Positions 3,252-50,594 of a stretch of 64,000 bases of DNA are shown here, one piece after another. Below the pieces are notes generated by a model. The model saw only the letters and a program-made list of their open reading frames with translations. It had not been told where the DNA came from and made no database searches. The stretch comes from Lachnospiraceae bacterium (GTDB taxonomy: Bacteria; Bacillota; Clostridia; Lachnospirales; Lachnospiraceae): positions 273-64,272 of the forward strand of contig JAZNWA010000027.1 in the NCBI GenBank assembly GCA_045593085.1. The letters are read 5' to 3'. Position 1 is the stretch's first letter. Each line of letters starts with the position of its first letter. Both the position numbers and the translations under genes were made by a program.

Positions 3252-4280
3252 AGTTATGACACTTACAAAGTTGGTACCTACTAGTACAACGAAAATGGTA
3301 TCCGTATCGGGAAGAAGGTTGGAAATGTACAGACCACTTATCTGGTAGATGCAGGCGGAACCGTTCTTGCATTGGAGCGAGACAATCAGAAACTGATTTT
3401 CGCATACGATTCCACCGGAAGAAGAGAAGGATTCAGCTTCTATAATGGAAATAGCCTTGTTGGACACTATTATTATTTGTATAATGCACAGGGCGATGTC
3501 ACGGGAATCCTGAACCAAAACATGTATCTCGTTGTCAGCTATACTTATGATAGCTGGGGAAAACTGATTTCCTGTACAGGAGATGCGGCAGAAGTACTTG
3601 GAACCTTAAATCCATTCCGCTACAGAGGATACATCTACGACGAAGAAACAAAGCTTTATTACTTAAACAGCAGATACTATGATCCGGAGACGGGAAGGTT
3701 TCTTAATGCGGATGTTTATATCAGTACAGGGCAAGGTGTCTTGGGACACAACATGTATGCTTATTGCAACAATAATCCTGTCAATATGCGTGATAATAGT
3801 GGAGAAAGACCTCTTGGAGTTGCTATCGATTTGTTAGCATATTGGCTTTTCGGAAGTGGAGAGAATTGTTATTACGATGATGATTCATCTGTTGCAAAGA
3901 AAATGAAAAAATCTAACACTATGAAGAAAGCAATTGAGGAGGAAATTGCAAAATATGAAAATGGTGAAGACTATGGGATTGGTACTGTAACATTTGGAAA
4001 AAGTGAGCCAGATTTGTGGTTAGGTGTTCGAAATGCAACGTATGAACTTTCGATAAAAAAAGAGACTAAAGAAAGTGGTTTTTGGTTTTTTAAGAGAACA
4101 AAGACGCGATATGTCGTGGAAGTGAAGGTCTTTGATATCTATGACTTTAACATTGGGAACGAGGAAGGAGATGGAATGGGTAGCTTATTAAATAATATGG
4201 GATACTGGGCCCAAGAAAATAATTTCGGAACAGAATATTATTGGGAGGTAAATTATGTTTATAAAACGAAATGGAAATAA
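3252..4280 (+). pseudogene. Orphan Rhs core plus C-terminal toxin tip (module 2), 5'-truncated
   Basis: In-frame GTY*YNENGIRIGKKVGNVQTTY (TAG at 3282) continues into ORF 3372..4280, which has YLYNAQGDV, YTYDSWG, NPFRYRGYIYDEETKLYYLNSRYYDPETGRFLNAD and YAYCNNNPVNMRDNSG, then a ~145-aa unique tip. Confidence 0.88.
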
Positions 4281-46812: not shown

Positions 46813-47529
46813 GTGATGAAAAAACGATCTATTGCAGAAGAACTGCGCACAAACTCTTATCCGGGAAGGGGAATTATCCTTGGAAAAACTCCGGATGGGG
46901 AACATGCTGTGGCTGCCTACTTTATTATGGGTAGAAGCGAAAACAGTAGAAACAGAGTGTTTATTGAGGACGGAAAAGGAATTCGTACCCAGGCATTTGA
47001 TCCGGCGAAATTGAGTGACCCAAGCCTCATTATTTATTCACCGGTACGAGTGCTTGGAAACAAGACTATTGTTACGAATGGTGACCAGACGGATACCATC
47101 TACGAACTAATGGATCGTCAGATGACGTTTGAACAGTCCTTAAGAACCAGAGAATTTGAGCCGGATGCGCCGAATTATACCCCAAGAATTTCAGGCATCA
47201 TGCGTATCGAAAATGGAACTTACAACTATGCGCTTTCTATTTTAAAGAGCAACTGCGGCAGACCGGATGGTTGTTTGCGTTATAACTTCGCATACGAGAA
47301 TCCAATAGCAGGAGAAGGTCATTTTATCCATACCTATATGGAAGATGGCAATCCGTTGCCGAGTTTTGAAGGTGAACCAAAGATGGTAGATACCGTTAAT
47401 TGTATTGACGAGTACACCGAGCTTTTGTGGAATAACTTAAATGAAGACAACAAGGTTTCTTTGTTTGTCCGTTATATTAACATTAAAACCGGAGAAGTAG
47501 TCTCCAGAATCGTAAATAAAAACAAATAA
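46813..47529 (+). CDS. IMP cyclohydrolase (stand-alone, PurO-like)
   Basis: YPGRGI, GRSENSRNR, VTNGDQTD, EPDAPNYTPRISG; directly upstream of the AICAR transformylase. Confidence 0.88.
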   Translation: MMKKRSIAEELRTNSYPGRGIILGKTPDGEHAVAAYFIMGRSENSRNRVFIEDGKGIRTQAFDPAKLSDPSLIIYSPVRVLGNKTIVTNGDQTDTIYELMDRQMTFEQSLRTREFEPDAPNYTPRISGIMRIENGTYNYALSILKSNCGRPDGCLRYNFAYENPIAGEGHFIHTYMEDGNPLPSFEGEPKMVDTVNCIDEYTELLWNNLNEDNKVSLFVRYINIKTGEVVSRIVNKNK

Positions 47530-47586
47530 AAACATTATGAAACGATGGTTCCCAAGTTTATACGAGGGAACCACACGTTATAGAAA

Positions 47587-48774
47587 GTGGAAAATATGAT
47601 GAAAGAATTAGAATTAAAATATGGTTGTAATCCAAACCAGAAACCTGCAAAGGTTTATATGAAAAATAAGGAACTTCCTTTTGAAGTGTTAAACGGAAAA
47701 CCTGGTTTTATTAACTTGTTAGATGCTTTTAATGGTTGGCAGTTAGTAAAGGAATTAAAAGAAGCAACCGGTATGCCTGCAGCGACCAGCTTTAAACATG
47801 TGTCTCCGGCAGGAGCAGCAATTGGCCGTCCGTTATCAGAAATTGAGAGAAAGATTTATTGGGTAGAAGAATTCCCGAATTTAAGCCCAATCGCATCTGC
47901 ATATGCAAGAGCAAGAGGCGCAGACAGAATGTCTTCCTTTGGTGATTTTATTTCTTTATCGGATGTGTGCGATGTAGATACTGCTAAATTGATTAAAAGA
48001 GAAGTTTCTGATGGAATTATAGCTCCGGGCTATGAACCGGAAGCTTTGGAACTATTAAAAGCGAAAAAAGGCGGTAACTACTGCGTAATTCAGATCGATC
48101 CGAACTATGTGCCGGAAGAAGTAGAAGAAAAGCAGGTATTCGGCATTACTTTCTCACAGGGCAGAAACAACCTTGCAATTAACGAAGAATTGTTATCCAA
48201 TATGGTTACAGAGAACAAAGAGATTCCGGAACCTGCAAAACAGGATTTATTAATTGCATTAATTACATTAAAGTATACGCAGTCCAATTCCGTATGCTAT
48301 GCAAAAGACGGACAGGCGATTGGTATCGGAGCAGGACAGCAGTCCAGAATCCACTGTACACGTCTTGCCGGACAGAAGGCAGATAACTGGTATTTAAGAC
48401 AGGCGCCTCAGGTATTAAATCTTCCGTTTGTTGATAAACTGGGACGGGCAGAGCGTGACAATGCAATTGATGTTTACATTGGAGATACACCGGAAGATGT
48501 ATTGGCAGATGGTGTTTGGGAACAGACATTCAAGGTAAAACCTGCAGTCTTTACCCGTGAAGAAAAAGCAGCGTGGTTAAAAGGCATGAAAGGTGTTGCT
48601 CTTGGATCGGACGCATTCTTCCCATTTGGGGATAATGTAGAACGTGCTCATAGAAGCGGTGTAGAATATATTGCTCAGCCGGGTGGTTCAGTAAGAGATG
48701 ATAACGTTATTGATACCTGTAACAAGTACAATATTGCTATGTGTTTTACCGGAATCCGTCTATTCCATCATTAA
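47587..48774 (+). CDS. purH: AICAR formyltransferase (PurH transformylase domain only)
   Basis: [49 protein letters not shown]; lacks the N-terminal IMPCH domain. Confidence 0.92.
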
Positions 48775-48789
48775 AATGAATAAAAACGA

Positions 48790-49320
48790 GGGCCGTCGTA
48801 AGACGGCCTTTTTTTGTTTTTCTTATTAAAAAAGCGGAAGAGTCTTTTTCTTTTCATTTTTTTTGATTTCGAAAAAAGCCGGTATTTCCTTAGTCTTTCG
48901 CCCGGACTATAATTTTATGTTTTTCCACCAATTACACAAGCTCGTCCGATTTGTCCGCGGGTGGAAAACACTTATTGTCAGCACCTAACTTCCTCTAGGC
49001 GGATACGCTCGTATGTCTATTACATGCGGCGAAAAAACTCGGCCGAAGAAAAAGCATTTCGGCCTCAGACAGTTTTCGCCTGCATGAACATTTACTCGCC
49101 GCATCCGCCAAGAGGAACTAAGATGCTTCCCAAGGTGTTTTTGCGCTCCGCGAACAAATGCGGTCGAGCTTGTGTAATTTTGGAAAAATATAAAACATCA
49201 AAATGTTCGGGCGAAAGGACTTAGGAAATCCCAGGCTTTTTCGACGAAAAGAAAATGGAAAGCAAAAAGATTCTTTTGCATTTTTATATACAAAAAGAAA
49301 AAGCCGTCTTGCGACGGCCC
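48790..49320. repeat. 531-bp imperfect palindrome with terminator hairpins at both ends
   Basis: Arms align in inverted orientation from GGGCCGTCGTAAGACGGCC / GCCGTCTTGCGACGGCCC inward to the apical GGCCGAA(49041-47)-10 nt-TTCGGCC(49058-64). Confidence 0.9.
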
Positions 49321-49343
49321 TTATTTTTATTGATTTTAATGAT

Positions 49344-50594
49344 TTATAGCATTACCGGGAAAATATAATCATTTTTACCGGCAACTTTGGTTAAATATAA
49401 TTCCCGCGCAAACAAGTCCTTTTTTAATAGGGAAAGCGCATCATCATCCAACAGGCTTTGTGCTTTTTTTACATTGGACAAAAGCGGTGCAAGCTGAAGA
49501 GACGAGACGTAGGACAGTAGGTCGGTCCGGCATTTTTTGAAACCAAGGATACGAATATACGGAACCGGAGATTCTTTTAAAAGGCACATGTCACTTTCTG
49601 TTATGTTTAATATGATGTGCAATAAAAAGCGGCTAACCCGCGCGTAGGTAATATCCTTTGTTTGCAGAGTTTTGCAGAAATCGGAAAAGGAGGTATAGGT
49701 TGATAATTGATTCAAGATACGATTGGACAATTCTTCGTTTCCGTCTGCGTAATCCGAAAAGCCGTGGGCTTTTTGGGATAAAATGCAATAGTTTAACTCG
49801 TTAGAAAAATCATTTTCCGTTACCGGAGTGTGATGTTCAAAATAGGATTGTAATAAGGCTACATCATGCGTCGGGACATAACTTTGCCATCCGTTCAGCG
49901 TATTTTTGGCAAATAAGTCACGAAGTGCAGTTGCGGAGCAGATATTTTCACTGGTAGATAAAGAGTGATAGTCTGTTCCAATACGTTGAATCGGGCATAG
50001 TTCAACCGGTTTATGCAACTTATGGCTTTTTTCTAAGCGTTTTAAGGCCTTGAGATATTCAATGGCCAAAATATTATTCGGTTGTTTCAGAAACTGTTCT
50101 AATTCTTCTTTTGAACAATCGCAACCTTCAGCAAAAGACGATGAAAAATGTTCTATCGTTGCCTGACAGCGGGCGGTTGGAAAGGACAGCCCGTCCTTTA
50201 AGTAAGCTTGTAAAGTCTTTTTATAAGTGTCCGGTTCTTCTATATATAATGTGGCCAGTTTTTGTAAGAGAGGGATGGAAGGGGTTTCGCATCCAAACAC
50301 AAGAACATCGATGCCGGAGGCAACCAATAAGGATATACTTCCAAAGGCAAAGGCTTCCGCACTGGCAGTAGAGTAAGGAACCGGAATTTGAAGAACCATA
50401 TCGGCACCGGAATGAAGGGCAGAAATAGTTCGCAGCTCTTTGTCTATGACAGCGGGAGTACCCCGTTGAACAAAATCACCGCTCATAGCAACAATGAGGG
50501 AATCGCAACCGGTTATAGAACGCGCCTTTTGGATTTGATAAGCATGGCCGTTATGAAATGGATTGTATTCAGCAACAATGCCTGCGATTTTCAT
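49344..50594 (-). CDS. tmcAL: tRNA(Met) cytidine acetate ligase / HIGH nucleotidyltransferase (YlbM family)
   Basis: GIVAEYNPFHNGH, MSGDFVQRG, PNNILAIEY, SATALR. Confidence 0.88.
   Translation of the reverse strand: MKIAGIVAEYNPFHNGHAYQIQKARSITGCDSLIVAMSGDFVQRGTPAVIDKELRTISALHSGADMVLQIPVPYSTASAEAFAFGSISLLVASGIDVLVFGCETPSIPLLQKLATLYIEEPDTYKKTLQAYLKDGLSFPTARCQATIEHFSSSFAEGCDCSKEELEQFLKQPNNILAIEYLKALKRLEKSHKLHKPVELCPIQRIGTDYHSLSTSENICSATALRDLFAKNTLNGWQSYVPTHDVALLQSYFEHHTPVTENDFSNELNYCILSQKAHGFSDYADGNEELSNRILNQLSTYTSFSDFCKTLQTKDITYARVSRFLLHIILNITESDMCLLKESPVPYIRILGFKKCRTDLLSYVSSLQLAPLLSNVKKAQSLLDDDALSLLKKDLFARELYLTKVAGKNDYIFPVML

Follow-up and report, generated by a model that had tools for sequence, protein, structure and literature searches.

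Long imperfect palindromes form a lineage-specific repeat family at convergent gene junctions of a Lachnospiraceae bacterium

Bacterial chromosomes are expected to contain few long palindromes, and those few to be unstable. [quoted passage not shown] The REP/BIME repeats of Proteobacteria, which form REPtrons with RAYT genes, are extragenic palindromes at gene 3' ends and in convergent gaps. Here, we analyzed a 64,000-nt stretch of a Lachnospiraceae bacterium genome (GenBank assembly GCA_045593085.1, contig JAZNWA010000027.1, positions 273 to 64,272; the whole stretch is hereafter called the window) and found that the gap between the convergent genes purH and tmcAL is filled by a 577-bp imperfect palindrome that belongs to a dispersed family. 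With a probability of roughly 0.55, we read this palindrome as a member of a foldback-type repeat that is lineage-specific, non-coding and non-autonomous, replaces the terminator shared by the two convergent genes and has been shaped by template switching.

Like MITEs and other intergenic repeats, the family is non-coding, dispersed, intergenic, foldable into hairpins, lineage-specific and variable in presence, and it includes deletion derivatives. In contrast with them, its members are three to five times longer, have arms of at least 250 bp that pair over their full length, carry a terminator hairpin at each end, show mirrored flanks and sit almost exclusively at convergent junctions, and neither a direct target-site duplication (TSD) nor a related insertion sequence (IS) or transposase was found. 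With the REP/BIME repeats the family shares extragenic placement at gene 3' ends and convergent gaps, confinement to one lineage and a likely role of hairpin DNA as substrate; however, REPs are units of 20-40 nt in arrays with a Y1 HUH gene, whereas the present unit is single, about 550 bp long and found in a genome with no match to PF01797. Thus, the family behaves as a foldback-type MITE or a REP-like palindrome but departs from both in what defines them, since it has no direct TSD, partner transposase or RAYT and is far larger.

Other systems are similar in mechanism. Gut-bacterial invertons contain a promoter or part of a coding region and are flipped by a dedicated invertase. As in invertons, the segment between short inverted repeats occurs here in both orientations; unlike in invertons, what flips is almost a palindrome in its own right, no site resembling a promoter was found in it, and flips were seen between species only. 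Fold-back formation of palindromes is also known from Tetrahymena rDNA and Streptomyces ends. In yeast, a 3' end folds back onto a short inverted repeat and is extended into an inverted copy of the adjacent DNA, a precedent for a related process (PMC10622511, PMC7467729), although those events create large chromosomal palindromes, whereas the tract copied here is short and rejoined beside the neighbouring gene. Template switching at inverted repeats homogenises the arms, inverts the spacer and extends the arm identity (PMC8604942, PMC7202029, PMC3820800), and the same three footprints are present in this family. The described quasipalindrome cases are single events at short inverted repeats of tens of nucleotides, whereas we infer the link for a dispersed 0.55-kb family in which 25-45 nt of flank, including coding tails, have been overwritten. 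Literature searches found no described equivalent, and the family is apparently undescribed; the observation itself is solid, and the mechanism proposed for it below is plausible but deduced.

The palindrome between purH and tmcAL

An alignment of the locus with its own reverse complement by BLAST recovered the inverted repeat as one unbroken alignment of 602 columns (74% identity, E 1e-82), covering positions 48767-49343 (C27:49039-49615). An earlier note, made from the letters of this DNA, had described a continuous imperfect palindrome of 531 bp between convergent purH and tmcAL; the structure is real and, at 577 bp, larger than claimed. In a repeat search of the window, nested inverted arms (I1-I4) spanned the entire purH/tmcAL gap. 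The single-strand fold of the palindrome had a predicted dG of -275 kcal/mol, compared with -137.5 +/- 6.5 in 100 shuffles (z = -21). The features are listed below from left to right.

47587-48774, + strand: left flanking gene, transformylase-only purH (open reading frame (ORF), PF01808); its last 8 nt, ATCATTAA (48767-48774), lie within the palindrome
48767-48791, + strand: left mirror flank a, ATCATTAAAATGAATAAAAACGAGG, comprising the native purH end and 3' untranslated region (UTR); pairs with 49319-49343 (I2)
48788-48821, no strand assigned: left terminal hairpin GCCGTCGTAAGACGGC (48792-48807) and T tract, terminator-like on both strands
48809-48861, no strand assigned: left spacer X, about 50 nt and A/T-rich; alignments of copies show it conserved in length and subfamily-specific in sequence
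48862-49040, + strand: left arm of the conserved core, with blocks TTTGATT, ATTTCC, TTTATGTTTTTCC, CTCTAAGCGGA and GCGAAAAAACTC (nhmmer core model and alignments)
49041-49064, + strand: apical hairpin GGCCGAA-N10-TTCGGCC, whose stem sequence covaries among copies
49065-49256, + strand: right arm of the conserved core, with blocks TCAAACAGTTTTCGCC, TCCGCTAAGAG, TTGGAAAAATATAAAT, GGAAAT and GAAAAGAAAAT
49257-49302, no strand assigned: right spacer X', mirror of X (I1, copy alignments)
49299-49322, no strand assigned: right terminal hairpin GCCGTCTTGCGACGGC (49303-49318), which repeats the left hairpin in inverted form and resembles a terminator on both strands
49319-49343, - strand: right mirror flank a', CCTTATTTTTATTGATTTTAATGAT, in which 48767-48791, with the final 8 nt of purH, recurs inverted; abuts the tmcAL stop
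49344-50594, - strand: right flanking gene tmcAL (HIGH_NTase1; ORF, PF05636 in orthologues), C-terminus ...FPVML*

The apex is the one given in the earlier note, with GGCCGAA at 49041-49047, a 10-nt loop and TTCGGCC at 49058-49064, and it is bordered by an internal loop that is conserved and asymmetric, with AACTC opposite TCAAACAG. The right core arm is about 75% complementary to the left one, and the differences between them are conserved among copies. Hairpins that score as terminators on both strands were found at each end (48788-48811 and 49299-49322; the left stems were predicted at 48788-48811 on the + strand and 48808-48791 on the - strand), with loops GTAA on the left and GCAA on the right. 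The proposal that inverted terminators cap the palindrome was therefore correct as to the hairpins but not as to the limits, since the palindrome continues for 25 nt past each of them, on the left to the purH stop codon and on the right to the base adjoining the tmcAL stop; a' is complementary to a at 22 of 25 positions. By sequence prediction, both ends have the G+C-rich hairpin and T tract just 3' of a stop codon that characterize an intrinsic bidirectional terminator. Given such a hairpin at both ends, transcription of the neighbouring genes should end at the edge of the element.

Mis-assembly of this palindrome is unlikely because its arms differ by 25%, the locus is interior to a 222-kb contig, and the same structure was found at the same locus in two independent metagenome assemblies (L036 and L099). 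The two neighbours, purH (+) and tmcAL (-), are convergent, and purH encodes only the AICARFT domain (PF01808). The last steps of purine synthesis are split in this part of the window (46813-48774) between a PurO-type IMP cyclohydrolase (PF07826 in orthologues) and this transformylase-only PurH, a division that is non-canonical but known.

A dispersed family at convergent junctions and its empty sites

The window's own genome (G000) is a metagenome-assembled genome (MAG) of 2.1 Mb in 31 contigs. BLAST and an nhmmer core model identified about 25 family loci in it, comprising 16 complete copies, 6 copies truncated by contig ends, and several fragments or internal-deletion forms. When compared with its own reverse complement by BLAST, each complete copy proved to be a palindrome of 500-690 bp with arms that are merely 71-77% complementary, whereas copies in the same orientation are up to 92% identical to each other. 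The left/right differences must therefore be inherited, and the element has polarity. From the outside in, the order of parts is constant: past the neighbour's stop codon come 10-45 nt of flank, then a terminator hairpin and its T tract, about 50 nt of spacer and the asymmetric core of about 400 bp, followed by the mirror image. Pairwise homology of the core reaches its limits near +/-200 nt from the centre, and the unit, including terminal hairpins, spacers and the imperfect core palindrome of about 400 bp with its fixed left/right differences, measures about 540-560 bp. The sequence of the hairpins is subfamily-specific (GCCGTCG.AAGACGGC in the window copy and in three or more further ones; GGGAGCGC..., GGACCGC..., GAGGCTGT... 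and more in other subfamilies), and within one copy the two terminal hairpins are inverted copies of one another. Centre-less derivatives that keep both core ends are present in G000 and in a second Lachnospiraceae MAG (G002, SGB_5078).

The complete copies show a strong preference in placement. Thirteen of the 16 sit between convergent ORFs and occupy the whole gap, while convergent junctions make up 8.2% of all gene junctions in G000 (binomial P = 3e-12). Judged from translations, the genes beside the copies seem to be unrelated and of a housekeeping kind, among them guaB, valS, folC and one for a NUDIX hydrolase, and no gene was consistently adjacent to the copies. One old, diverged copy and one young copy (C1:38589-39143 and C1:41591-42182) enclose a 2.4-kb segment with guaB and a MerR-like gene. 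In a survey of repeats in G000 the family was the sole sizeable non-coding one; the other repeats are coding (YD/RHS-like) and unrelated to it, such as a 372-bp repeat with 85% identity at C27:3547-3918 (window 3275-3646) and C3:70150-70521. Two contig starts, C14:1-263 and C15:1-263, both begin at the centre of the palindrome, carry the same (left) arm type, are identical at 261 of 263 positions and diverge 9 nt beyond the hairpin GCTGTCTTGCGACAGC, a type also found in the G002 copy at the locus orthologous to C27:111041. They may be either two fresh copies or the paired arms of one near-perfect palindrome, symmetrised recently, at which the assembly broke.

Among 13 genomes of the genus, only G000 and G002 contain the family, the latter with about 10 loci of the same architecture. 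A pattern scan of GTDB matched the G002 species alone, and a similar scan of metagenomes gave 10 matches, one real (L036) and nine due to chance. A sequence-model search of one genome from each of 400 other Lachnospiraceae genera yielded no real match; two weak matches in other genera were not palindromes and did not fit the core model. BLAST of phage and plasmid collections found no family match, and all 27 matches in a pattern scan of IMG/VR viral contigs were chance ones. With regard to host factors, canonical SbcD (TIGR00619 above cut-off) was found in 5 of the 13 genus genomes and in neither carrier; the carriers have only a 373-aa metallophosphoesterase matching the first ~100 positions (G000:C14:3690-4010, G002:C10:12176-12493). 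Loss of SbcCD would be at most permissive, because six family-free genomes of the genus also lack canonical SbcD.

The purH locus was followed in relatives through homologues, exact-protein look-ups of both genes having given no match. The purH/tmcAL synteny is conserved. In six genomes of the genus the gap measures 85-165 nt and holds a single ordinary bidirectional terminator and no element, and the site is also empty in three closer relatives (L100, L101 and L102; PurH 90-94% identical). It is occupied in G000, in L099 (PurH 97% identical) and in the metagenome contig L036, and these filled alleles have the element in place of the terminator native to the nearest empty sites, those of G002 and L100 (GGCAGAGAGG...CCTTTCTGCC). 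In G002 itself (PurH 93-94% identical), the 365-nt gap is free of the family; it contains a different 365-nt insert (L022, G002:C25:30750-31120) with a 29-nt hairpin, GGTACTGACAGACATTGTCAGTACC, and no family match. Elsewhere, the sites of the G000 copies at C18, C5:20013 and C28 are empty in G002, whereas C27:111041, C29 and C27:128947 are occupied in both. Because close relatives hold empty sites with an ordinary terminator, these sequence comparisons indicate that the element was gained, at different sites at different times.

One arrangement deserves separate mention. In L099 (ERZ28436057 NODE_28252, 2359-3585), the element 3' of purH is adjoined not by tmcAL but by a RelA_SpoT-family gene homologous to the gene beside the partial copy at the start of C15 of G000 (C15:1-1238). 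Either element copies have recombined and rearranged the chromosome, or this contig, of 3.5x coverage, is chimeric via the repeat.

Arm compensation, interior inversion and mirrored flanks

Pairing of the arms is kept through compensatory changes. Across 19 copies, double-sided changes were observed at 83 of 135 arm-arm pairs, compared with 50 +/- 3.5 in column shuffles and 36-47 in slid controls, and the Watson-Crick share was 79% versus 64% in shuffles. RNAalifold found compensatory changes at 21 of 35 pairs in the inner 160 nt. The remaining mismatches do not have the bias toward G:U-compatible pairs that had been suggested: in the cores of 16 copies there were 82 G:T and 68 A:C mismatches and 326 others. 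Certain asymmetries are shared by both species and kept down to the most diverged copies, namely an A.A mismatch in CTAAG/CTAAG, the AACTC loop adjacent to the apex and a larger asymmetric loop. Since these mismatches and loops persist in two species, some sequence-specific constraint acts on the element, and the conserved loops argue that something reads its folded form. The earlier note had listed a single copy, absence from relatives and lack of compensatory signal as grounds for rejecting a genuine element; none of these was found. It was also right that no credible ORF is present, as small ORFs in the 19 copies showed no conservation of frame, length or sequence.

The interior of the element occurs in both orientations. 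L036 and G000 share their flanks at the purH locus, but the L036 interior is 89.8% identical to that of G000 in reverse orientation versus 74.8% in forward orientation. Flank-distinguishing single-nucleotide polymorphisms and the hairpin loop bases (GTAA, GCAA) are unflipped, whereas the spacers directly inside are flipped; both breakpoints must therefore lie within the terminal hairpins in this orthologous pair, the one in which they were mapped. At all three loci occupied in both G000 and G002, the core lies on opposite strands relative to the flanking genes, while L099 has the orientation of G000. Thus, the interior is inverted in four of five orthologous comparisons; flips are known from comparisons between lineages only.

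The flanks carry a third signature. In the young subfamily, homology between copies ends abruptly at the outer edge of the hairpins, so that in the window the left terminal hairpin is the outer boundary of the common unit; the next 25-45 nt are locus-specific, yet the two flanks of one copy are still inverted copies of each other. At the purH locus the direction of copying can be read. Each of the 11 relatives inspected, empty-site ones among them, has the purH end TTC CAT CAT TAA or a synonymous variant (F-H-H-stop), and a 3' UTR of the same kind recurs at empty sites (GAATAAAAAC.AGG in G009, AAGACGAGG in G002), which identifies the left flank as native. The right mirror flank (49319-49343) is found in no empty-site relative, where the native terminator and tmcAL 3' UTR stand instead, and the tail of tmcAL reads ...FPVML* in the window and VML* in filled alleles versus ...FPIM* in the empty L100. 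Beside the C10 copy, the last eight residues of the right-hand gene (VEKKERR versus AGNIKQR in G002) are encoded by the mirror of the left gene's tail. Two TAA stops lie at mirror positions at four loci. At C27:111041, the mirror covers 32 nt in G000, including codons ACAGAAGAATAA, and about 12 nt are detectable in G002.

As for conventional mobility, dispersed non-coding copies with terminal inverted repeats are present (the whole unit is an inverted repeat), as are empty sites in relatives, at purH, C18, C5 and C28. A direct TSD was not found, the flanks of all four young copies being inverted rather than direct copies. The terminal hairpins do not represent a direct TSD of a palindromic hairpin, because their loops are reverse complements, and plain insertion into the loop of the native terminator is ruled out by the complete hairpins at both ends. 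BLAST and nhmmer revealed no larger element with matching core ends in G000. A foldback or MITE-like element, as proposed earlier, is hence the best fit with regard to the ~25 copies, empty sites and deletion forms, but it has neither a direct TSD nor an autonomous partner.

Explanations and meaning

The best reading of the family is a selfish foldback-type repeat moulded by replication template switching. Arm compensation, interior inversion and inverted copying of the opposite flank would be footprints of a DNA polymerase that switches templates between inverted repeats. If a nascent strand changed templates inside one terminal hairpin and came back inside the other, the interior would end up inverted; a late return would copy the opposite flank in inverted form and delete the previous sequence, with the palindrome growing outward. 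Such growth would halt at sequence protected by selection, that is, at the two coding regions. Survival of only those outcomes that spare both genes would account for the ends of the palindromes, which lie at both coding regions or a few codons inside them, and for their near-confinement to convergent junctions, where mirroring of a 3' UTR and terminator does no harm, whereas elsewhere it would destroy promoters. A new site might be reached if a nascent strand that has stalled at a terminator hairpin moved from it by copy-choice into a donor copy and then primed by fold-back, or else through a structure-specific enzyme that would recognise the hairpin form by its conserved loops. A cruciform or single-strand structure site, another early suggestion, is compatible with the strong arm-arm covariation and forms part of this explanation.

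Several points weigh against template switching in a selfish repeat. All steps of the mechanism are deduced and none was observed directly. The conserved mismatches and loops persist in two species, whereas homogenisation by template switching alone should erase them. The flips in four of five comparisons could equally reflect an enzymatic invertase acting on terminal inverted repeats. The C27:111041 locus of G002 is ambiguous, as its weak mirror similarity may exceed 12 nt, and all four young copies are already mirrored at their flanks, so that mirroring may happen at insertion or later. Finally, with neither TSD nor transposase, mobility rests solely on presence and absence between species.

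A bolder possibility, to which we give a low probability, is that the family represents transposase-independent mobile DNA, with terminator-to-terminator spread by copy-choice, fold-back copying of flanks, layered captured hairpins and rewritten gene 3' ends, or alternatively that its loops mark the substrate of an undescribed structure-specific recombinase. A related and more doubtful explanation is an enzyme-driven hairpin element, in which the single-stranded hairpin with its loops and A.A mismatch would be the substrate of a structure-specific recombinase or nuclease encoded elsewhere in the genome that performs both insertion at terminator hairpins and inversion. The persistence of the asymmetric loops and the CTAAG/CTAAG mismatch despite arm homogenisation would be expected, as would the inversion breakpoints within terminal hairpins in the mapped pair, the end of young-copy homology at the outer edge of the hairpins and the retention of core ends in deletion derivatives. 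However, G000 has no Y1/HUH transposase (no match to PF01797), its only trace of IS110 is an 88-aa fragment, neither is supported as a partner, and no neighbour recurs among the housekeeping-like genes beside the copies. No multi-copy IS was found in the G000 assembly, from which, as a MAG, IS copies may be missing. The association with IS200/RAYT suggested in the earlier note was likewise not found.

It is less probable again, and in our view unlikely, that the palindromes are domesticated, kept by the host as a binding or structural site (a double terminator or insulator, or a site for a topology- or chromosome-organising protein, as has been proposed for REP/BIME) and spread because they are useful. 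Their strict placement at convergent junctions, the terminator-like hairpins on both strands at both ends, and the retention of sequence blocks and asymmetric loops in two species, strongly diverged copies included, would suit such a role, but the family is missing from 11 of the 13 genus genomes and from the 400 other genera, and one ordinary terminator suffices at the same junctions. Moreover, orthologous interiors are about 70% identical or below BLAST detection, compared with ~80-87% for the flanking genes, deletion derivatives are tolerated, and no candidate binding protein was identified.

A long-hairpin non-coding RNA gene family, or convergent sense and antisense RNAs starting inside the core and processed by RNase III, seems improbable. 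The predicted fold is very stable and the covariation strong, and a perfect TATAAT (window 48908-48913) lies in the left arm of most G000 copies; however, no -35 element accompanies this motif, and neither the diverged copies nor G002 conserve it. A sigma-70 promoter scan of the window copy gave no site inside the element, and inspection of the aligned copies by eye showed no conserved promoter-like site. Rfam searches of 48000-50000 at E <= 10 returned only sub-threshold hits (best 24 bits versus a gathering threshold of 60). The balance of G:T and A:C mismatches (82 versus 68) is unlike that of RNA helices, the orientation relative to the neighbours flips, and the predicted inward-facing terminators at both ends would shield the interior from incoming transcription, so the earlier suggestion of a long-hairpin RNA found no support. 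An assembly artefact or a neutral one-off inverted duplication is hardly credible: several copies do lie at contig ends and break the assembly, but there are ~25 loci with arms 25% diverged and a compensatory signal, and three independent assemblies agree at the purH locus.

The family has several implications. About 25 palindromes of more than 0.5 kb persist in a genome of 2.1 Mb and hold about one in ten of its convergent gene junctions, and these non-coding repeats replace terminators and overwrite last codons, as in the tmcAL tail and the eight-residue tail beside the C10 copy. Short-read assemblies of these gut bacteria break at the family's copies, which may also give rise to chimeric joins. 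Palindrome dynamics have so far been studied mainly with engineered short quasipalindromes; the present copies, young and old, flipped and unflipped, short- and long-flanked, form a natural series for the maintenance, inversion and extension of palindromes in vivo. If transposase-independent spread or a new hairpin-specific enzyme proved true, the family would represent a new mode of DNA mobility.

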